A stretch of 21,544 nucleotides of DNA from a virus (Duplodnaviria > Heunggongvirae > Uroviricota > Caudoviricetes): the IMG/VR virus record IMGVR_UViG_2537561688_000020; one strand, 5' to 3'. Positions 1-8,339 of this stretch are shown piece by piece. The notes below the pieces were generated by a model, which made no database searches, was not told the DNA's origin, and saw only the letters and a list, made by a program, of their open reading frames with translations. The position numbers were made by a program, and so were the translations under genes. Within the stretch, counting starts at the first letter, position 1, and every line of letters starts with the position of its first letter.

Positions 1-90
1 TTGCCTCCCCCCCGTTGATGGGTAAAATAGCCGCAATTTTTCGTTTTCAACAAGCGCGGCGCGATGCCGCTTACTCAAGAAGAAAGAATT

Positions 91-165
91 ATGACGTTGT
101 CTCCTTATTTGCAAGAGGTGGCGAAGCGCCGCACTTTTGCCATTATTTCTCACCCCAATAATTAA
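91..165 (+). pseudogene. prfC: Truncated 5' fragment of peptide chain release factor 3 gene (prfC) ending in non-native codons; prophage left attachment junction
   Basis: Translation of 91-165 is [24 protein letters not shown]. The first 22 residues match the N-terminus of RF3 as I recall it ([28 protein letters not shown]), then the GTP-binding P-loop is replaced by NN-stop. A tyrosine integrase starts 220 bp downstream. Junction lies near 153-158. Confidence 0.65.
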
Positions 166-385
166 GTCTAAATTAAAGCTCTTTTACTTTTTCAAAGTCC
201 TTTCAGTTAATTGATGTTTGGTTTTATAAGTCATTTGAATACAGTTAGTTATGTGGCTTCTTTAATTGAAAATTCTTTCATGTAACTTTAAATCGATCAG
301 GTTGCTTTCATCAAAAATCTGTACATATTTTTGTACATAATGTACAAAGCAGTAGAGGTGTTTTGCGATTTGTACAAGGTGAGTA

Positions 386-1624
386 ATGGCGCTGTCTGAT
401 GCGTGGTTGCGTTCAGTCGTTGGAAAGGAACGTGATAAGGTTTTGGTTAAATCCGATCGTGATGGTCTGTCTGTCAGAGTATCACCGAAAGGTCGCGTAG
501 TGTTCCAATATCGTTATCAATGGGCAGGGAAAGGTGAGCGCCTTGATATCGGAACTTACCCGGCAACTGGATTAAAAGAGGCCAGAGAAGAAGTTATCCG
601 TCTCCGTGGTGAACTCGAGTCAAACCGCAATCCACGATTAGTCAAGCAGGCTGAAAAACGAAAAGCTACTGAAGCCATGACGGTAGAGTCTGTGATCCGT
701 GCCTGGTATGAAGCATATTGTGTAAAAAATAAAAAAGGTTCTGAACAGATACTCCGCTCGTTTGAGCTGCACCTGTTCTCTAAAATCGGGAATATCCCTC
801 ACGATGCAGCTACATTGCATGATTGGTTAGAAGTCCTAGAGCCTCTTAGCACCAAGACTCCAGCAATAGTAGACCGATTGCTAATTAACGCAAAGCAGGC
901 TCATGTCTGGGCGTATAAGAGAAAGCTCATTGAAACTCGCCCACTGTCGGATATCACGGGTAAAGATATGGATATCCGTAAAGGTCAGAAAAAACGGTTT
1001 CTGACACATGATGAAATTAGCATCCTTTATGCTGCGATCGATGGTTCTCGAATGGTTCCTAAATACCGAGCCTTCATTAAACTATTGCTGCATTTTGGTT
1101 GCCGTAGTTCAGAGCTAATTACTGCTAGGGTGGATGATTTTGATTTCATAAATAAGGTATGGACTGTACCACCAGAACGACATAAGACTGGGGACATAAC
1201 AGGCGAACCGCTAAAGCGGCCCATTATTGAACCGGTTGAAGAGCTTATAAAATACGTTATCTCTATGAACAACGGTTCCGATATGCTTTTTACTAAGGAA
1301 GGAAGCAGGGAGCCAGTTGGTCGGACATCATTGCAGTCGCTGCCTTACAATTTAATGCAGTTCGCATGGCGACGTTTGGGGTATCAATTTCCTCATTGGT
1401 CTCTTCATGATTTGAGACGAACAGCACGAACAAACTTTTCTGATCTTACTGCGCCTCATATTGCTGAAATAATGCTCGGTCATAAACTGCCAGGGGTATG
1501 GCAAGTTTATGATAAGAGCGATTATCTAGAAGAACAGCGTAAAGCCTATCAGGCATGGTGGGATAGGGTTGAATCGATTCTTACTTACACTAATTTAGGT
1601 TCCAACAGACAGCCTATTGAATAA
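386..1624 (+). CDS. int: Phage tyrosine integrase (P4-type, N-terminal arm-binding domain)
   Basis: 412-aa ORF. N-terminal arm-binding-like region (LSVRVSPKGRVVFQYRYQWAGKGERLDIGTYP). C-terminal catalytic signatures HDLRRTARTNF and a downstream Tyr (VWQVYDKSDY). Sits next to the att-like prfC fragment. Confidence 0.9.
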   Translation: MALSDAWLRSVVGKERDKVLVKSDRDGLSVRVSPKGRVVFQYRYQWAGKGERLDIGTYPATGLKEAREEVIRLRGELESNRNPRLVKQAEKRKATEAMTVESVIRAWYEAYCVKNKKGSEQILRSFELHLFSKIGNIPHDAATLHDWLEVLEPLSTKTPAIVDRLLINAKQAHVWAYKRKLIETRPLSDITGKDMDIRKGQKKRFLTHDEISILYAAIDGSRMVPKYRAFIKLLLHFGCRSSELITARVDDFDFINKVWTVPPERHKTGDITGEPLKRPIIEPVEELIKYVISMNNGSDMLFTKEGSREPVGRTSLQSLPYNLMQFAWRRLGYQFPHWSLHDLRRTARTNFSDLTAPHIAEIMLGHKLPGVWQVYDKSDYLEEQRKAYQAWWDRVESILTYTNLGSNRQPIE

Positions 1625-1738
1625 TGAATAGACATACAGAGTAAGAAAATAGTAATGATTCTTGGATTATAATTAACTGATTGCTGATATTTCGATTTGC
1701 CGATTTATGAAGAGACGGTCATTATACTTATAAAAACA

Positions 1739-1770
1739 CCACTCCTTATCCTTACAGAAATAAGGAGTGG
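1739..1770. terminator. Bidirectional hairpin between convergent int and deaminase genes
   Basis: Inverted repeat ccactccttat (1739-1749) / ataaggagtgg (1760-1770) with a 10-nt loop. Flanked by an A-run on the + strand and a T-run on the - strand (reverse complement of 1731-1738). Confidence 0.5.
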
Positions 1771-1776
1771 AAACAG

Positions 1777-3372
1777 TTATGGCTGAGACTCTGGTTTAGC
1801 AATCTCGTTTATAAATTTCTTAGCTACAACAGTCTCATACTTTCTATAATCATCAAGATATTGAACATCTATATGATTTTTGTAGCGAGCATTAAATTTA
1901 TTTGCAGCCCCTGTTTTATCATCTTTACGTTCATCCGTTGGTCTGAAAAATTTATGGTAGCGGCGGGGTGATACCCCCTCAAAATCACAAAATATTACTT
2001 TGGAAGATTCTTCGTTCTTTGTTATTGCATCATTATGCAGATCAAGAGCAAGGCTTTTATCAAATGGCTCTATATATACTACTTTTTTTATTCCAGATGC
2101 GACAATATGCCTTGCACAGTTGTGGCAGGGGTAGGTTGTCGTAAAAAGAATTTTATCTTTAGTATCGCCGTTTTGTTTTCTAGCCATTGATGTAATGACG
2201 TCCATTTCAGCATGAATTGATCTGGAGTACTCCATTACACTTGATATTTTGCTGTCTTTGTAAATGCCTTCTGCAATATTATCTAATTTGTTTAGAAGTC
2301 GTGTTATATTAATATCGGCAACAGTTTGTCCTGCGGAAATACCTAATACACTTCTTACTTCGGTTGATAATATGCTTTTTATACGGTCTTTAATTTTTAG
2401 CTTGTTTGCATCATTATAACACTTACCACTTTTGTGAACGCATCGATGATCGTTATCAAAATCATCACTGCTATACAACCCGCCACCAGCTTTAGGTACG
2501 TCGTTCTTACCCACGGCAAGCAAATTCCCTTCATCATCAAACAGTGCAGCCCCTACTTGACGTGATAAACAAGCTGATTGTAATGATGTTGAAAAGGCAG
2601 CATACATACCTTTCTCGTTAAAAGTTGGTGTTAAACCATTTTTGCCATGAATAAGACCGAAAAACCGATCAATCTTCTTCTTTAATTCACTTTTTTGGCT
2701 GAAGTTATTTTTAATAAAAAAATCTGAATCAAGAATGGTTTCCCCGGTTCTTTGTCCATACGGATCAGAGGATTTATTATCAATATTGATAATTAAATGA
2801 AGGTCGTCCTTTGCCGATTCGTCAGCAATGAGATTCGGAATTCGGTAATCTAAATCGCGCAAAACTCCTAACAAATAGAAATTATGCTGATATATAACTC
2901 TGAATAACTCTATTTCTTCCGGCCTTTTGAATTGATCAATGATGAAGACAGTACCTTTATATTCATCATTATTATAATCAATATTCTTTTTCGCTGTTGC
3001 GATTGCTGCAATAGCAGCTTCTGCAAGCAACTCATTTTTTTCGTAATGTTTACGAAGTTTATTGGCAATATCCTGGAGTTTTAAATGTCTATTAACTTGT
3101 GTGCTTTCGGATACCTTCAGTGCTGCTGGCTCAAAATATAATGGGTCTTCCATAAGCGCACTTATGCGGATGTGTACAACATTATCCCCCCATTCTTTGG
3201 ATATCTCTTCGATAATTTTGTTTATCGTTCTCATGCCACATCCAACATATCCACACAATCCAAGATAAATATCTTTTGATTGTCGTGAATTCACAATCTC
3301 AAGTGATGATGCCGATGTTGAGCCTTTTTTTTCATTCAGCTTTTGTGGAGTTTTTTTTGCTGCTTCAGCCAT
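1777..3372 (-). CDS. dcdV: DcdV-like anti-phage deoxycytidylate (dCTP/dCMP) deaminase: N-terminal P-loop-like domain fused to C-terminal zinc CDA-fold deaminase
   Basis: 531-aa ORF. C-terminal zinc-deaminase signature: CLSRQVGAALF, then HAE (H387/E389), then PCHNC (C416/C419) and GIKKVVY, as in dCMP deaminases. N-terminal glycine-rich P-loop-like stretch GLCGYVGCGMRT. About 32% GC in a sampled stretch versus about 60% in the replication genes. Int-proximal cargo position. Confidence 0.7.
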   Translation of the reverse strand: MAEAAKKTPQKLNEKKGSTSASSLEIVNSRQSKDIYLGLCGYVGCGMRTINKIIEEISKEWGDNVVHIRISALMEDPLYFEPAALKVSESTQVNRHLKLQDIANKLRKHYEKNELLAEAAIAAIATAKKNIDYNNDEYKGTVFIIDQFKRPEEIELFRVIYQHNFYLLGVLRDLDYRIPNLIADESAKDDLHLIINIDNKSSDPYGQRTGETILDSDFFIKNNFSQKSELKKKIDRFFGLIHGKNGLTPTFNEKGMYAAFSTSLQSACLSRQVGAALFDDEGNLLAVGKNDVPKAGGGLYSSDDFDNDHRCVHKSGKCYNDANKLKIKDRIKSILSTEVRSVLGISAGQTVADINITRLLNKLDNIAEGIYKDSKISSVMEYSRSIHAEMDVITSMARKQNGDTKDKILFTTTYPCHNCARHIVASGIKKVVYIEPFDKSLALDLHNDAITKNEESSKVIFCDFEGVSPRRYHKFFRPTDERKDDKTGAANKFNARYKNHIDVQYLDDYRKYETVVAKKFINEIAKPESQP

Positions 3373-3382
3373 TGCTAATTAC

Positions 3383-3568
3383 CTAGTCGAAAACTATATC
3401 AGTATTTAATATTTCAAAAAATGCATCAAGAATTTCTTTATTTTTCTTTTTACTTTCAAATGAAATGACATTATCTTGATTAAATGTTGTTAATTCAATG
3501 CAGATAGAATCAACCTGATCATTGGCGGCGATGCTCGATTCTATTTCATTAAATGCTATTACATTCAT
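3383..3568 (-). CDS. Small acidic hypothetical protein directly upstream of the deaminase gene (may instead be non-coding leader)
   Basis: 61-aa ORF ending 10 nt before the deaminase start codon on the same strand. AT-rich, no recognisable domain, weak RBS. Confidence 0.3.
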   Translation of the reverse strand: MNVIAFNEIESSIAANDQVDSICIELTTFNQDNVISFESKKKNKEILDAFFEILNTDIVFD

Positions 3569-3912
3569 TTATCTTATCCAAACATAATAAAAAACCATAT
3601 GGCCTTTAGTGTACAACAAAACCATACTCTTTCCCCTCATTTTAGAGGGGGAAGTGTGGTCCACATCATGTTTTTTCCCACCCATGAAAATGTTCACCTA
3701 GGCTGGTGAGGCATTTTATGTACATCAACTCTTTGAGTTGAATCATTATTTTAGTATTTTTTCTATCATTGTGTAAATGTCTTCGTTTCAATACATCATG
3801 CTTGGGGAGCGGTCCCCGTTTCCTGATAATTAATGCTTGTGGATAGCAACGTCCGTGCCTGTATCGCTCAGACAGACGCTTACCGTGCCATAGACGTGTC
3901 TGTTCACATACG

Positions 3913-4107
3913 TCATTCAATAACTCCTGCAAACCTGTAAATCTTGCGTGAAGCCCATTTATTTGGGCATGATTTAATATCAGGATCTGGAAAATCAGGC
4001 CTGTACTTCTGGCCAGTTCTCCGGTTTACGCTGTTCCAGCGAAGAACTGTCGATACTGAAACGCCACAGAAGTCGGCGACTTGTTTAGTTGTCATTAAGT
4101 TGTTCAT
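3913..4107 (-). CDS. Excisionase/AlpA-like HTH DNA-binding protein
   Basis: 64-aa ORF with the motif MTTKQVADFCGVSVSTVLRWN typical of small phage excisionase-family HTH proteins. Start codon overlaps the upstream gene stop (TAATG). Confidence 0.65.
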   Translation of the reverse strand: MNNLMTTKQVADFCGVSVSTVLRWNSVNRRTGQKYRPDFPDPDIKSCPNKWASRKIYRFAGVIE

Positions 4108-4727
4108 TACTTCACCTCCTGCGGCGGTTCCGGTAGCGGCATCCAGTGGGTTACTTTCGATGCCGGTTCTTCTCCATTGTCAGTAACTGCCCACCATTTG
4201 TTTCTCGAACAATCATAATACCCTTCGAAGGTATCGCACTCAGTCCAGCCGTAAGACTTACCCCAACACCAAACATACTGTTTATCGTTCGGCATTCGCT
4301 CACTACAGCTTATCCAACCATCCGGAGTTACCGGAGAGTTGCCCGACAGCTTGTTCAACTTGTAAGTCTGGCTTACAGGTTTGGCACCATGAAGCATGGT
4401 GGCGCGGCAGGTGTTCCAGCCTTCATCAAAACCGACTATGCCATTATTTAAAGACGGACGAGCATCTGGCACCACCAGTACTGGCTTGGCTATATATAGC
4501 GGCTGAACATACCAGCCCTTTGATAACCAACTGTCAGCAATGTTTTTGCTCCTGGTTATTGCCGGAATACCTAAGCCATTGTCTGAATGCAGCCATGCCA
4601 CCGGCTCCTCTTCCAGCGATGCCAGAGCAATTTCATAAGCACGGCGCTCAATATCGTCTCGAACCTCTAGGCTGCTGATTCGTTCTTTGATTTCTTTAAT
4701 CAGTTCTTTATTGGTAAATGTGGTCAT
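4107..4727 (-). CDS. DUF551-domain phage protein
   Basis: 206-aa ORF with the DUF551 hallmark C-terminus (KVTHWMPLPEPP). Translationally coupled to neighbours. Confidence 0.7.
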   Translation of the reverse strand: MTTFTNKELIKEIKERISSLEVRDDIERRAYEIALASLEEEPVAWLHSDNGLGIPAITRSKNIADSWLSKGWYVQPLYIAKPVLVVPDARPSLNNGIVGFDEGWNTCRATMLHGAKPVSQTYKLNKLSGNSPVTPDGWISCSERMPNDKQYVWCWGKSYGWTECDTFEGYYDCSRNKWWAVTDNGEEPASKVTHWMPLPEPPQEVK

Positions 4728-5089
4728 TATGCTCCAGCCTCCGGCGCTTTGGGTATTACTGCCCAGTGAGTGATATTGAAGTTTTCAAGGTCCCCGACCT
4801 GAAATGTCCACTGCCATTCTCCGGTTTCTTTTTGTCCCCAGGTGTACCAGAGAGAACGCCAGCCAATCAGCCAGCCTTCTCCGTTAGCATCAAATAACAG
4901 AACACTTTCATTTGCTGGTGGCAGTTCAGCTGACACTGGTATTATTTTGTTTTCCAGTGCCGCACATTTAGCTTCAAGCGCGTCGAATTTACGTACCAGG
5001 TACTCAGCATTTGTTTCGTTCACTTTCAGATCTCGCGGTACACATTTCCCGCGAAGAAACCCTTCCATTTCGAAAACATTCATGCGCAT
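4727..5089 (-). CDS. DUF551-like phage protein
   Basis: 120-aa ORF with Trp-rich C-terminus ending ITHWAVIPKAPE. Overlaps neighbours by a few nt. Confidence 0.55.
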   Translation of the reverse strand: MRMNVFEMEGFLRGKCVPRDLKVNETNAEYLVRKFDALEAKCAALENKIIPVSAELPPANESVLLFDANGEGWLIGWRSLWYTWGQKETGEWQWTFQVGDLENFNITHWAVIPKAPEAGA

Positions 5090-5616
5090 TTGCGTAACTC
5101 CGATAATTCGTTAAAGCGTTCCATAAACATCCCGTAGGCATGGCCTGGAGCCAGTGGAATCACGTTGATCATCTCTGTTGCCGGGATACCTTCCAGCACA
5201 GGCCAGAAAGAGCCATCATCAAGCCCGAGATCGCGGCGTTCGGTTGCCAGCATGATGAGATCGGCATATTTCACGGGTGTACTCATAACCGGGGGTAACC
5301 CGTATTTCTCACGGATTACGGCGTCTATTTTTTCTTCCATCCGTTTATAGTCAGGAAGAAGGCGTTTCAGTGGAGCCGGGATGTCCTGGCAATACGCTTC
5401 TGTTGCATCATGCATTAAGGCTTCAAAAGCAAATTCCTGCGGCACCAGCTGGCTGCAAAGAACCGCATGTTGGGCGACGCTGTAGAAGTGCGAAAGATGA
5501 CCGGCAAAGCGACAGATATTTGAAAGGGAAACCGCGATATCGTTAATATTGATGTCGTCTTTATTTATCTTGTCATAATAAAAATGCTTCCCGGAAAAAG
5601 TTTTAATAAATGACAT
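5080..5616 (-). CDS. HD-domain phosphohydrolase, YfdR-like 5'-deoxynucleotidase
   Basis: HD-superfamily metal-binding motifs (H...HD...D pattern: SVAQHAV, LMHDATEAY). Start chosen at the internal ATG (5614-5616) preceded by GGAG at -6; the ORF-track start at 5643 lacks an RBS. Product is 178 aa. Confidence 0.7.
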   Translation of the reverse strand: MSFIKTFSGKHFYYDKINKDDININDIAVSLSNICRFAGHLSHFYSVAQHAVLCSQLVPQEFAFEALMHDATEAYCQDIPAPLKRLLPDYKRMEEKIDAVIREKYGLPPVMSTPVKYADLIMLATERRDLGLDDGSFWPVLEGIPATEMINVIPLAPGHAYGMFMERFNELSELRKCA

Positions 5617-5743
5617 TTTGTTCTCCACGTATATGCGCTGCACCGCGCTGAATTCTGGTAAAAAGAATCCCTCACCATCCGGCGATTATTGAGTAAATTA
5701 CGTTTCCATAAATGCCCCCGCAGGGGCATTTGCAGTAATGAAA

Positions 5744-6568
5744 TCAGGCGGTGAAAGTACCAATAAAGGTTTCTACTTTGCTGTCTTTGAATTTCTCAAC
5801 AAGCAGATCACGAAATTCGTTAGCCATTTCTTCCTGCACCGCTTCCAGCTGAATAATGCGCAGAACCAGTACAGGACGATCGCCAGTGATAATGCTGAGG
5901 CGTAATTTAAATGGACGTTCTTTCAGGCCTTCAAACGGAACGCATTTAAATTCAAATGCCACTGGCATAATGTCTTTGGTCTTCGCTTCGACAGACTCCA
6001 TCAGGGAGCGTTTGCCGCTGAAGTCATTATCTTCAAAATCAGCGGTCTGGTTTGCTTCAATCGTGATTTTACGGACCGCCGCAGCCGCTTTTGTTGCCTG
6101 AATGGTGTCACCATTAGCATCAAAGCCCACAAGGTAGTCGGCCCAGTCTTCAATCCATTCTGCCAGTGATTTCTGGGAGTTACGCTCGCCATTAACAGAC
6201 AACAGAGCAGAGAACGGTGCTGTCTTTTTCAGTTTGAGAGTGGCGGTGTTATCTGCGTGACCTGGTTCATCAATAGTGCCCAGGTTAAGCACACTGACGG
6301 CTCGCATATTATCGGCATCGATAAAGCAGCGGGTGCCTTCATCTGCAAGATCTTTAGAATAACGGGTAAAGTCATCGATGCTGGCAGTGGAAAGCGCGCC
6401 ACGGAAACGGAAGCGATTTAAATTAAATTTTTCCAGATCATGAATGCGGAAATTCTCAGGTAATGCCACAGCATCGGCACCAATCTTACTGATAATTTCA
6501 TTAACACCCTGAGAAGAAATAAGGGCATGGATTTGATTAATTGCGGTTGCGTCTAAGTTCTGAGACAT
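5744..6568 (-). CDS. Conserved prophage early-left protein (YfdQ/DUF2303-like)
   Basis: 274-aa ORF in the early-left operon. Size and position match YfdQ-family proteins of CPS-53-like prophages. Assignment is from memory. Confidence 0.5.
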
Positions 6569-6633
6569 AATAAGTCCTCACTATATAAAGATATTCAGTG
6601 ATGAGATAAATAATCAGTTAATTAAGAACGATA

Positions 6634-6996
6634 TTAATGACCTGCTGCGCGGAGTTTTCCGTCAGGTTCACCGGCAAGAGTCAGTAATTGTCCCTGGTCT
6701 TCCTGCAGAATAGTCAGGCGACCACCGCGATTGACATACATCGGCGTTTCGGTGGTGTCTTCTTCGGAAATTTTCCCGCGGTTAGTCGGGCGGACATATG
6801 AGAGTTTATGTTTGATTTTCACACGGCTCTCATCAAACGGTTCGATTTCCAGGTTGAGTGAGACCTTACCTTTGGTTTTCGTGTTCATCACACCGGAAGC
6901 GACTTCACTGAGAACTGCGCCGATTTTGGTTTCAAATACGCCGCCGTCCAGCTCCCCGATAAATGCCTGTACATCAGTACTGCGTTCGCTAGCCAT
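6634..6996 (-). CDS. Hypothetical early-left protein (120 aa; YfdP-like position)
   Basis: Start placed at the ATG at 6994-6996, preceded by GAGGAG. The ORF-track N-terminal extension to 7227 overlaps a GC-rich stem-loop region and is probably not translated. Confidence 0.5.
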   Translation of the reverse strand: MASERSTDVQAFIGELDGGVFETKIGAVLSEVASGVMNTKTKGKVSLNLEIEPFDESRVKIKHKLSYVRPTNRGKISEEDTTETPMYVNRGGRLTILQEDQGQLLTLAGEPDGKLRAAGH

Positions 6997-7597
6997 TTTG
7001 CTGCTCCTCATCATATCGACCCTGCAAGGTCGGTTGGTTTCTCCACAAAACAGAGAAGAACACCTGCGGTGGCAGCCGCCCGGATGGATTGGGTTATGAG
7101 CCCGTCGTCCGGTGATGCTCTTCTCTGTTTTGTAAAAAGAGCGGTACCAGCCGGAAGCAAGTGTACAAACTGGTACCGCCAAAGCAGTGGCTGTTGTGGT
7201 GGGGTTGTCACTCAGGCGTATGGTCAACCTGACAATCCGGTGTCCTCAACGGGGAAAGAGTAACCCCGCCATACTTACCGCCGCGCCATTTCGCGGATTA
7301 CCACAACGCTGAGAGCACTTAGCCAGTTACGGCACCACACTTTGTCGCGGTTCCATAAATGCCCTCATCGTTGCACCCTGGTCTCTTCCCAGGCGTCAAA
7401 CCGAATCGCCACGCTGGTTAGGCGTCTTATCAGCATCATCATTGACTTGCACATTCCGGCTACCTGGTTTGTTTGCTCGAGCAAGGAGTGGATTGTCCCC
7501 TTTAACGTCACCAGACCGCTAACGACGCATGTGCCATACGCCGTGTTACAACCAAATTTTGTTTTAATCTTGCCTGTGTTATGTTTCTTTTAGATAC

Positions 7598-7625
7598 ATT
7601 ATGTATCTCATGGGTACATTGTCAA
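7598..7625 (-). promoter_or_regulatory. Candidate early-left promoter (pL-like) with overlapping 17-bp palindromic operator
   Basis: On the - strand: TTGACA (reverse complement of 7620-7625), 16-nt spacer, CATAAT (reverse complement of 7598-7603). Perfect palindrome agatacat-t-atgtatct at 7592-7608 overlaps the -10 element. Confidence 0.4.
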
Positions 7626-7629
7626 GCAT

Positions 7630-7651
7630 AAAAAAACCTGCCGAAGCAGGT
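7630..7651 (-). terminator. Rho-independent terminator downstream of the repressor gene
   Basis: Hairpin acctgc-cgaa-gcaggt (7636-7651) followed on the - strand by a 6-7 U run (reverse complement of 7630-7635). Lies 14 bp past the repressor stop. Confidence 0.55.
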
Positions 7652-7664
7652 TCATAAATATTGA

Positions 7665-8339
7665 TTAGGCCTTTATTGTGTATCTTCTTGGTTTTCCCGA
7701 GAAAATCACTGTACCAATTATAGAGCAATTACCGTTAATCTTAATGTAAGGCTCAGGCCAGTTTGGGTTTAATGCTTTGAGATAACGCTGTGTTCCATCT
7801 TCTATCAACCGCTTGAAGGTGGTTTCGCCTGAATCGTGCATCAATGCAATAACGTCGTCACCGTGGCAGGCAGGGACTTCAGGATCTACAAAAATCATGT
7901 CTCCCGGGCGGTACTCATCAATCATTGAATCACCAATCACCCGCAAGATATAAGTCATTTCGCCACAGGGTACAGGGCAGGGATAAGTTTCTGCTGTGCT
8001 CAAATCAACCTCAGAATAGCCAACTTCTTTCCATGCTCCGGCCTGTACCCATGATATGACAGGGACTAACGTTATTTGTTTGTTAGTAATTGAAACATCA
8101 GGTTTTTTTGTGATGTTTGTTGTCTGGTGTTCTTGATCAAGCCATCCGACAGGCAGGTCGAAACATTTTTCGATGTGCCGTGCCATGCTGTCACCGATAT
8201 TTTTAGTAGCACCATCTCCCATAAACCTGCTGGTCTGGGTTGGCTCGCGATCAATCATGGTGGCAAAGGAAGAATTCCCGCCAACACCATCTCTCAGTTT
8301 TCTGGCGTTAGACCGCCGGATGTCATGGACTGTTTTCAT
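7665..8339 (-). CDS. CI-like prophage repressor (N-terminal HTH plus C-terminal S24 LexA-like peptidase domain)
   Basis: 224-aa ORF. C-terminal S24 signatures (RVIGDSM, later Lys) and an N-terminal phage CI-type DNA-binding region. Divergent from a Cro-like gene. Confidence 0.85.
   Translation of the reverse strand: MKTVHDIRRSNARKLRDGVGGNSSFATMIDREPTQTSRFMGDGATKNIGDSMARHIEKCFDLPVGWLDQEHQTTNITKKPDVSITNKQITLVPVISWVQAGAWKEVGYSEVDLSTAETYPCPVPCGEMTYILRVIGDSMIDEYRPGDMIFVDPEVPACHGDDVIALMHDSGETTFKRLIEDGTQRYLKALNPNWPEPYIKINGNCSIIGTVIFSGKPRRYTIKA

Follow-up and report, generated by a model that had tools for sequence, protein, structure and literature searches.

Comparative evidence for a conserved small-protein gene in the difV/avcI position of a mobile dCTP deaminase defence cassette

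The window analysed here, a stretch of 21,544 nucleotides (nt) from a virus of the class Caudoviricetes (IMG/VR record IMGVR_UViG_2537561688_000020), holds a prophage that is integrated beside yjjG in Escherichia coli. On its minus strand it encodes an anti-phage dCTP deaminase of the DcdV/AvcD type, and the region upstream of this gene (positions 3373-3912) is the subject of this work. In Vibrio cholerae the corresponding place is taken by difV (avcI), the inhibitor of the deaminase, which has been described as a small RNA (sRNA). An earlier note on the window (the original prediction), made from the sequence alone, had placed a 61-amino-acid (aa) acidic open reading frame (ORF) here and had drawn the positional analogy with DifV. 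We give a probability of about 0.7 to the reading that a two-gene defence cassette, mobile and self-contained, occupies about 1630-3800 on the minus strand, that positions 3373-3800 are its 5' half and that a small-protein gene in it is the counterpart of difV/avcI. What is new is comparative evidence suggesting that this locus, regarded as that of an RNA antitoxin, encodes a conserved small protein. The features on which the argument rests are the following:

1777-3372, minus strand: anti-phage dCTP deaminase of the DcdV/AvcD type, 531 aa (PF00383, NF041025, PADLOC dCTPase)
3373-3382, minus strand: 10-nt spacer GUAAUUAGCA between the stop codon of the small ORF and the deaminase ATG, of fixed length in the cassettes
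3383-3568, minus strand: predicted gene for an acidic 61-aa small protein in the avcI/difV position (substitution rates, homolog clusters, profile-profile link)
3569-3740, minus strand: non-coding 5' leader of about 170 nt, its 5' end inferred from the -10 element (identity, fold z)
3619-3662, minus strand: stem-loop of the leader with the core CCCCCUC/GAGGGG at 3631-3653 (free energy -21.2 kcal/mol, z = -3.0)
3748-3777, minus strand: sigma-70-type promoter candidate, TTTACA (3777-3772), 18-nt spacer, TAAAAT (3753-3748) (promoter scan)

The 61-codon reading frame upstream of the deaminase

The ORF at 3383-3568 extends over 186 nt from an ATG start to a TAG stop codon, and its predicted product of 6.9 kDa is acidic, with an isoelectric point (pI) of 4.06 and 12 D/E against 4 K/R residues. 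It is preceded by a weak ribosome-binding site, GGAUAAG, about 8 nt 5' of the ATG. Between its stop codon (TAG, 3383-3385) and the deaminase ATG (3370-3372) the gap is exactly 10 nt, GTAATTAGCA. The original prediction had been accurate in all these points, i.e. the coordinates, the acidic product, the weak ribosome-binding site and the distance to the deaminase. The spacer is invariant at 10 nt, with no more than two substitutions, in ten divergent aligned cassettes, and the same gap was found in the metagenome and look-up loci. The only Shine-Dalgarno-like element available to the deaminase is a UAGG that overlaps the stop codon of the small ORF, which suggests translational coupling of the two genes.

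A stop-free frame of this length arose by chance in 52 of 20000 shuffles of the ORF (0.26%). No stop codon, frameshift or indel was present in 13 ORF variants down to 53% aa identity; the most distant of them (L097) has 61 nt differences, and randomly placed substitutions kept the frame in 4.7% of trials. When the window ORF was compared with other members of its clade by the Nei-Gojobori method, synonymous divergence (dS) was 0.45-0.50 and nonsynonymous divergence (dN) 0.09-0.15, giving dN/dS ratios of 0.21-0.30 (Fisher p = 0.003 for the comparison with variant L096). The deaminase genes of the same pairs gave a dS of 0.57-0.73 and a dN/dS of 0.07-0.09. Among the 13 variants the invariant Leu47 is specified by six different synonymous codons, and Ser11, Ala49 and Ile53 by three codons each. 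The RNA of the ORF folds no better than shuffled sequences (z = -0.38). Alignment of homologs, which the original prediction had proposed as a check, showed protein-level conservation of the ORF (dN/dS 0.2-0.3, 13 intact variants) and no covariation in the leader; the former agrees with part of what the prediction itself had named as speaking against an RNA. These comparisons show that the ORF is a real gene with purifying selection on its amino-acid sequence, and we regard it as very probable that this gene is translated.

Homologs of the 61-aa protein fall into 29 clusters with 75-98% identity, nearly all of exactly 61 aa, from Serratia, Budvicia, Yersinia, Klebsiella, Salmonella, Proteus, Morganella, Enterobacter, Cronobacter and Phytobacter. 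In E. coli the whole region 3373-3912 was found in 49 of 5426 complete genomes with at least 98.5% identity. The Prokaryotic Genome Annotation Pipeline (PGAP) calls the gene in only a few of the 49, as the 'hypothetical protein' WP_040091656.1. The Pfam, NCBIfam and PADLOC libraries contain no model for the small protein, and no DNA-binding fold is recognisable in it. A comparison with PDB sequences returned chance matches only, and no match was obtained in a phage database (blastn) or in a plasmid database (tblastn with the 61-aa protein).

Small reading frames before related deaminases and the AvcID system

The deaminase itself matches Pfam PF00383 (dCMP_cyt_deam_1) at 4.8e-15, the NCBIfam equivalog NF041025 with 456 bits against a cutoff of 400 and PADLOC dCTPase at 5e-161, and PGAP labels it 'anti-phage dCTP deaminase'. 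It combines an N-terminal P-loop-kinase-like part with a C-terminal dCMP/cytidine deaminase domain. Its identity with four other annotated E. coli members is 42-61%, and the catalytic HAE and PCxxC motifs are invariant among them; a PDB sequence search returned generic dCMP deaminase domains only. Apart from an extra 12 nt, some deaminase alleles (L094, L100 and E. coli H105-H108) are 97-98% identical; these encode 535 aa and give a 1608-nt match.

In V. cholerae, DcdV is inhibited post-translationally by DifV, which is located in a 222-nt ORF (ig222) just 5' of dcdV, and a 174-nt ORF within ig222 is sufficient for inhibition (10.1101/2021.03.31.437871); the size of the minimal unit was later given as about 171 nt. 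Removal of 18 nt at the 5' end or of 4 nt at the 3' end abolished activity, and Hsueh et al. concluded that DifV is an sRNA (10.1101/2021.03.31.437871). Cognate inhibition by the upstream locus was shown for homologs from enterotoxigenic E. coli (ETEC), Proteus mirabilis and Vibrio; co-expression of the small ORF of ETEC strain H10407 with its cognate deaminase, in trans from a second plasmid, suppressed filamentation (10.1101/2021.03.31.437871). Cross-inhibition occurred only between the two Vibrio systems, and the authors reported that the four small ORFs lack similarity (10.1101/2021.03.31.437871). Substitutions that make the deaminase insensitive to DifV are also described there (E123K, A126T, K201R, K511E and Q514R). 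The DcdV-DifV pair is now named AvcID and classed as a type III system (PMC10511110). In the homologs neutralisation is lost once host transcription stops, and the deaminase turns dCTP/dCMP into dUTP/dUMP, starving phage DNA synthesis. Contrary to the original prediction, the partner of an enterobacterial homolog has thus been described before, since the H10407 small ORF has already been tested as a cognate DifV.

The positional analogy with DifV is upheld by the assignment of the deaminase to the NF041025 equivalog and by a survey of 85 deaminase loci, 80 of which came from one-genome-per-species contigs with deaminase identities of 35-66%. In 71 of the 85, a same-strand ORF of 40-120 aa ends between -30 and 130 nt from the deaminase start. 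Trp is the last residue in 41 of these 71 upstream ORFs; among 2999 control ORFs taken from the same loci the share is 2.7%. Four other E. coli contexts, i.e. the H10407 plasmid p58, a 4.6-kb plasmid, an integrative and conjugative element (ICE) and a conjugative plasmid, carry an annotated hypothetical ORF of 60-62 aa just upstream of the deaminase. In the family alignment (A6), M-x-[VI]-[VI]-x-F stands at the N-terminus and s-N-V-[IV]-x-F in the centre, and a basic linker then leads to the C-terminal helix, A-x3-[IV]-L-x2-A-x2-L-x-W; variants from Xanthomonadales keep the helix and end with ...LPGK or ...LPGR. In the window protein the elements follow in this order too (MNVIAF..., DNVISF, KKKNKE, ILDAFFEILNTDIVFD), but its last residues are Phe-Asp rather than Trp. 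Across Proteobacteria the deaminases are thus preceded by a widespread small-protein family, with an h-h-x-F strand, an N-V-[IV]-x-F strand, a basic linker and a C-terminal amphipathic helix, to which the window protein probably belongs.

Selection on the Trp-ending proteins was assessed in 13 pairs. Nine of them, unsaturated at synonymous sites, gave dN/dS ratios of 0.11-0.43, all with Fisher p < 0.05; in the four saturated pairs the proportion of synonymous differences (pS) was 0.81-1.0, so that no ratio could be computed, and the proportion of nonsynonymous differences (pN) lay well below pS. In this family the distance between small ORF and deaminase varies, from -7 to 120 nt. Its small proteins are basic (median pI 9.7) and their partner deaminases near-neutral (median pI 7.1; L009-L086), whereas the Asp-ending small proteins of the window, L003 and L007 are acidic (pI 4.1-4.7) and have basic partners (pI 8.2-8.5). 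This charge complementarity hints at direct contact between the two proteins. A search of 5.8 billion proteins with the Trp-family profile gave only 5 matches because the queries were too short and divergent. A hidden Markov model of the 61-aa clade retrieved only 2 clusters from 1.84 billion representatives and did not reach the Trp family.

The H10407 p58 member (L003) stands close to the window locus. Its deaminase is 61% identical to that of the window, and its ORF (L003:2618-2803) encodes 61 aa ending with ...KKEIILD, which places it in the Asp-ending clade. The two small proteins share 24-34% identity; BLASTP between the two ORFs is not significant alone (E = 0.74), and profiles were needed to link them. 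By these criteria the window locus would belong to the known AvcID (DcdV-DifV) system, in the same Asp-ending clade as the ETEC pair.

The loci of Vibrio offer a direct comparison with the published constructs. L129, of the V. parahaemolyticus type, carries a 56-aa ORF that measures exactly 171 nt with its stop codon and ends with ...ANLLRAAQKIRW; its deaminase cluster (at least 90% identity) includes AGQ91905.1, which we take to be from FDA_R31, the strain used in the experiments. For V. cholerae, the non-VSP homolog L131 was compared in place of difV of VSP-1 (7th-pandemic), and its small ORF ends with ...ENLLRAAQKIRW. Between L129 and L131, pS is 0.66, near saturation, and pN is 0.15, corresponding to a dN/dS of 0.11 (p = 1e-8). 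Set beside the 171-nt ORF of L129, the published minimal unit coincides with the reading frame from ATG to stop. That activity is sensitive to a 4-nt truncation at the 3' end can be explained equally well by a need for the C-terminal residue and by a need for an RNA end.

Promoter, leader and spread of the cassette

The minus-strand promoter proposed in the original prediction (TTTACA-18-TAAAAT, 3777-3748) scores best in our promoter scan, with 10 of 12 positions in agreement. Taken together, the sites of the scan were not enriched over shuffled sequences (7 sites against 10.1 expected), and the match alone is not above chance. Support for the candidate comes from its conservation at the 5' edge of the cassette, where both hexamers are kept in five of six cassettes from different contexts, about 25 nt inside the edge of cassette homology. 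The description of some 340 base pairs as AT-rich holds for 3569-3790 with a GC content of 35%, and fails for 3791-3912, which has 51% and lies outside the conserved cassette.

The leader has a mean pairwise identity of 0.83 over 3569-3700, rising to 0.92 beside the start codon, compared with 0.78 at the third positions of the deaminase. Its RNA folds with z = -2.98, and none of 200 shuffled sequences folds as well. The hairpin at 3631-3653, correctly noticed in the original prediction, is conserved and forms the GC-rich core of the larger stem at 3619-3662, which leads into the U-rich tract GGUUUUGUUGU (3614-3624). Where C has changed to U in the 5' arm of the stem, G.U pairs are preserved on the sense strand only. 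RNAalifold found no covariation in the leader (covariation term +0.38), the sequences being too similar for its detection, and a scan of positions 1-8000 against Rfam 15 at E <= 1 gave no match in 3373-3912. The leader was not found in the ETEC locus (L003), in L007 or in the Trp-family loci and is conserved only within the close 61-aa clade; it is therefore considered a clade-specific regulatory addition and not the conserved partner. With its stem and subsequent U-tract the element looks like an attenuator, a terminator or an element of mRNA stability.

Two further ORFs on the minus strand were rejected as genes, one of 42 aa (3569-3697) on account of a 1-nt indel in the leader among cassettes and one of 88 aa (3666-3932) because homology ends at about 3800. 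A direct repeat, (A)CATGATG(T), is located at 3793-3803, about 20 nt 5' of the -35 element, and at 3663-3673 in the leader, about 75 nt past the predicted transcription start. Both copies are conserved in cassettes of other genera and might be operator sites, or might be due to chance. In two bovine strains (NZ_AP042480.1 and NZ_AP042548.1) a copy of IS1A is inserted in the leader at about 3612, directly past the hairpin and U-tract, and separates the ORF and the deaminase from the cassette promoter. These two strains and the related OkiPb017xx series (H64-H70) also have a deaminase match that is split or truncated, with only query 190-1596 covered, and the cassette copies of both groups look inactivated.

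Cassette carriers comprise prophages, P4-like satellites, ICEs and islands of at least eight enterobacterial genera besides E. coli. Every contig fetched contained 61 codons, 10 nt and a deaminase of 529-531 aa, and this fixed layout recurs in Klebsiella, Serratia, Morganella, Cronobacter, Proteus, Enterobacter and Yersinia. The neighbours are unrelated to one another and include a P4-like primase, Psu/Ogr-Delta, P2 GPA/portal, StbA/TraU, EcoRII and other integrases; ORF, spacer, promoter and hairpin are all conserved across these contexts. In the alignment, cassette homology extends from about 3800 to about 150 nt past the deaminase stop and includes a terminator-like hairpin (1739-1770), which marks the 3' edge and, as the downstream alignment shows, is conserved in cassettes of other genera. 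Upstream of about 3800 identity drops to a background of 0.30-0.40, and 3801-3912 is therefore regarded as junction DNA and the 88-aa and 42-aa ORFs as non-genic. The cassette is bounded in the window by the following features:

386-1624, plus strand: tyrosine integrase
1739-1770, minus strand: intrinsic-terminator-like hairpin and T-run, 7 nt past the deaminase stop (terminator scan: 13 pairs, then TGTTTTTATA)
3801-3912, no strand: junction DNA between the cassette and the excisionase-like gene, 51% GC, not conserved in cassettes elsewhere
3913-4107, minus strand: prophage gene for a 64-aa excisionase/AlpA-like helix-turn-helix (HTH) protein, right flank of the cargo slot (weak HTH_17/MerR and Xis_Gifsy_1/excisionase matches)

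In more than 1000 related E. coli prophages, homology to the window begins only at about 3911-3917 and continues rightwards, and 3801-3912 is absent. In strain MS7163 (L133, NZ_CP026853.1) this prophage occupies the same yjjG site and has another gene, for a 331-aa hypothetical protein, between integrase and excisionase in place of the cassette. The interval between these two genes is therefore a variable cargo slot. The prophage is of the KplE1/CPS-53-like type.

The inhibitory species and the surrounding prophage

The published AvcI/DifV model would make the transcript of 3383-3568, perhaps with flanking sequence, a pure RNA antitoxin, with the ORF incidental or serving as a scaffold. Several observations favour it or weigh against a protein as the inhibitor. 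DifV constructs that lack the ribosome-binding site or carry TAA in place of the ATG still inhibit (10.1101/2021.03.31.437871), and since start-to-stop and no-RBS constructs are active, RNA is favoured as the active species in the Vibrio systems. The abundant avcI transcript of V. parahaemolyticus, about 280 nt long, is lost after rifampicin and after T5 or T7 infection, though not after spectinomycin, and AvcI and AvcD have been reported to form a complex in vitro (PMC10511110). It is from the spectinomycin and start-codon results that RNA draws its main support. Within the clade of the window the variable sites of the ORF are distributed 20/14/26 over the codon positions, a weak periodicity (chi-square p = 0.17) compared with 87/58/310 in the deaminase. 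Synonymous divergence of the ORF is somewhat below that of the deaminase, and because its third positions are slightly more conserved than those of the deaminase (0.87 vs 0.78), a modest extra constraint at the nucleotide level may be present; together with the weak periodicity this indicates that the small protein is less constrained than the enzyme. PGAP leaves the ORF without annotation in most genomes. The AlphaFold2 model of the 61-aa protein (strands 2-5 and 33-36, helix 40-55) is of low confidence (pLDDT 52) and was used solely as a weak hint at secondary structure. In hhalign, residues 29-54 of the window protein aligned with the Trp family over 26 columns at P = 6e-4 and a probability of only 29%, and the Asp-ending clade is only weakly connected with the Trp-ending one.

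Against an inhibitor made of RNA alone stands the fact that the locus, although described as an sRNA gene, keeps an open frame, a peptide C-terminus and a dN/dS well below 1 across dozens of lineages. Frames of 50-90 codons are open at this position in 71 of 85 loci, AT-rich genomes included, and the Trp-ending C-terminus (41 of 71 against 2.7% of controls) is conserved without nucleotide similarity. The dN/dS ratios of 0.11-0.43 come from unsaturated pairs, in several of which, such as L129/L131, synonymous sites are near saturation. The ORF RNA shows no more structure than its shuffles, and the repeats of classical type III antitoxins are missing: Tandem Repeats Finder detected no ToxI-type tandem repeats in 3300-3950 at a score of at least 30, only short scattered direct repeats. 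The 4-nt loss at the 3' end that ended activity takes away the stop and the last codon of a minimal unit running from ATG to stop. We consider the pure RNA antitoxin unlikely. The original prediction had left the choice between protein and RNA undecided; published genetics still support RNA, whereas the comparison favours protein-level conservation of the 61-aa ORF. A regulator residing instead in the structured leader (3569-3740), either as an sRNA of about 125 nt that ends at the hairpin and U-tract (about 3612-3620) or as a cis-acting attenuator or RNA switch, would explain the leader's fold, the hairpin being followed by UUUUGUUGU, its identity above the third-position level of the deaminase and the sense-strand-specific preservation of G.U pairs. 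It does not account for the loci of ETEC, L007 and the Trp family, where the leader is absent and the ORF always present, or for the ETEC segment that suppresses toxicity, which is the ORF and not a leader. Covariation and an Rfam family are both lacking, and a cis role of the leader would be compatible with a small-protein inhibitor rather than compete with it, so that we hold the leader as the regulator to be quite improbable. Least probable of all, and hardly to be expected, is an ORF that acts merely in cis by delivering ribosomes to the Shine-Dalgarno-poor deaminase start, with a functionless product. The invariant 10-nt spacing and the lack of an independent Shine-Dalgarno sequence are in line with such a coupling device, but it would not keep an amino-acid sequence (dN/dS 0.2-0.3) or a family-wide C-terminal motif, the gap varies from -7 to 120 nt in the Trp family, and the ORF of ETEC, supplied in trans on a second plasmid, has been reported to neutralise a deaminase that is expressed from a ribosome-binding site of its own.

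We thus return to a cassette whose small-protein gene is the counterpart of difV/avcI. Within the cargo slot between integrase and excisionase of the KplE1/CPS-53-like prophage, the order of elements would be a sigma-70 promoter (3777-3748), the structured leader of about 170 nt, the 61-aa gene, the 10-nt spacer and the dCTP deaminase. The difV/avcI-type locus would keep the DcdV/AvcD-type deaminase inactive until a phage shuts off host transcription. Small ORF and deaminase may be co-transcribed from about 3740 and translationally coupled; co-transcription would fit the layout, in which the cassette edge has one conserved promoter, the gap measures 10 nt and a terminator lies only past the deaminase. 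The leader hairpin and U-tract could tune the amount of full-length mRNA via readthrough or stability. The inhibitory species would be the 61-aa protein, alone or with its own mRNA. For the small protein as the active species the chances fall just short of even, because the spectinomycin and start-codon results on the Vibrio systems are the main argument for RNA. Somewhat more tentative still is the extension to the whole family, namely that AvcI/DifV is a translated protein of 55-62 aa with a strand-strand-helix arrangement and a conserved C-terminal helix which, alone or with its own mRNA, holds these deaminases inactive.

The window locus shares with AvcID the two-domain architecture of the deaminase toxin, a small locus immediately 5' on the same strand (a 186-nt ORF here, an inhibitor locus of about 170-220 nt there) and carriage on mobile elements. 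It differs in showing protein-level selection and family-wide peptide motifs, whereas the AvcID inhibitor was described as a non-coding RNA; moreover, the product of the window clade is acidic and ends with Phe-Asp, whereas most members are basic and end with Trp, and the clade has a conserved structured leader of its own. The single-gene 'dCTP deaminase' system of PADLOC, DefenseFinder and NF041025 has the same deaminase family and is catalogued as one gene, whereas an upstream small protein accompanies the deaminase in most of our loci. This system goes back to Tal et al. (2022), who reportedly found that dCTP deaminase is activated when a phage shuts off transcription in its host. Type III toxin-antitoxin systems (ToxIN, TenpIN, CptIN) resemble the locus in that the antitoxin precedes the toxin within a single operon, that the inhibitor is labile and lost when transcription stops, and that they serve in phage defence. 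Their antitoxins, however, are tandem repeats processed by an endoribonuclease toxin, whereas the toxin of the window is a deaminase, and they have a terminator between antitoxin and toxin, in place of which the window has only the 10-nt gap. With type II systems the locus has in common a small-protein gene immediately upstream that is apparently translationally coupled to the toxin gene and whose product is charge-complementary to the toxin, but the 61-aa protein has no recognisable DNA-binding fold and the spectinomycin data on the Vibrio systems argue against a simple labile-protein antitoxin.

If the small protein is indeed the inhibitor throughout the family, AvcID would be a protein-antitoxin or dual-function system and not type III, and catalogue entries for a 'single-gene' dCTP deaminase would miss a component. 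The answer could change both the classification of the system and the understanding of its trigger, which would be the disappearance of either a labile RNA or a labile protein. The region itself is now largely accounted for, as the promoter, leader and probable inhibitor gene of a mobile cassette of the AvcID type that defends by nucleotide depletion and sits in the cargo slot of a prophage. Its annotation has a gap, the 61-aa gene being uncalled by PGAP in most of the 49 E. coli genomes and the deaminase being listed in the catalogues as a one-gene system.

The excisionase-like gene at 3913-4107 is outside the deaminase system and common to many prophages without the cassette. In the best-matching genome PGAP annotates neither this 64-aa gene nor the 61-aa gene, and in GB089 the excisionase-like region is flagged as a pseudogene fragment. 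Past it follow DUF551, yfdR, yfdQ, yfdP and a LexA/cI-like repressor gene. YfdR (5080-5643) is an HD-domain 5'-deoxynucleotidase encoded a few genes from the dCTP deaminase, which places two enzymes of the deoxynucleotide pool in one prophage; it belongs to the prophage backbone and occurs without the cassette as well. Beside the repressor gene, positions 7589-7663 gave a weak, sub-threshold Rfam match to STnc50, with 26 bits where the gathering score is 55, which is essentially a terminator-like hairpin and probably not meaningful.

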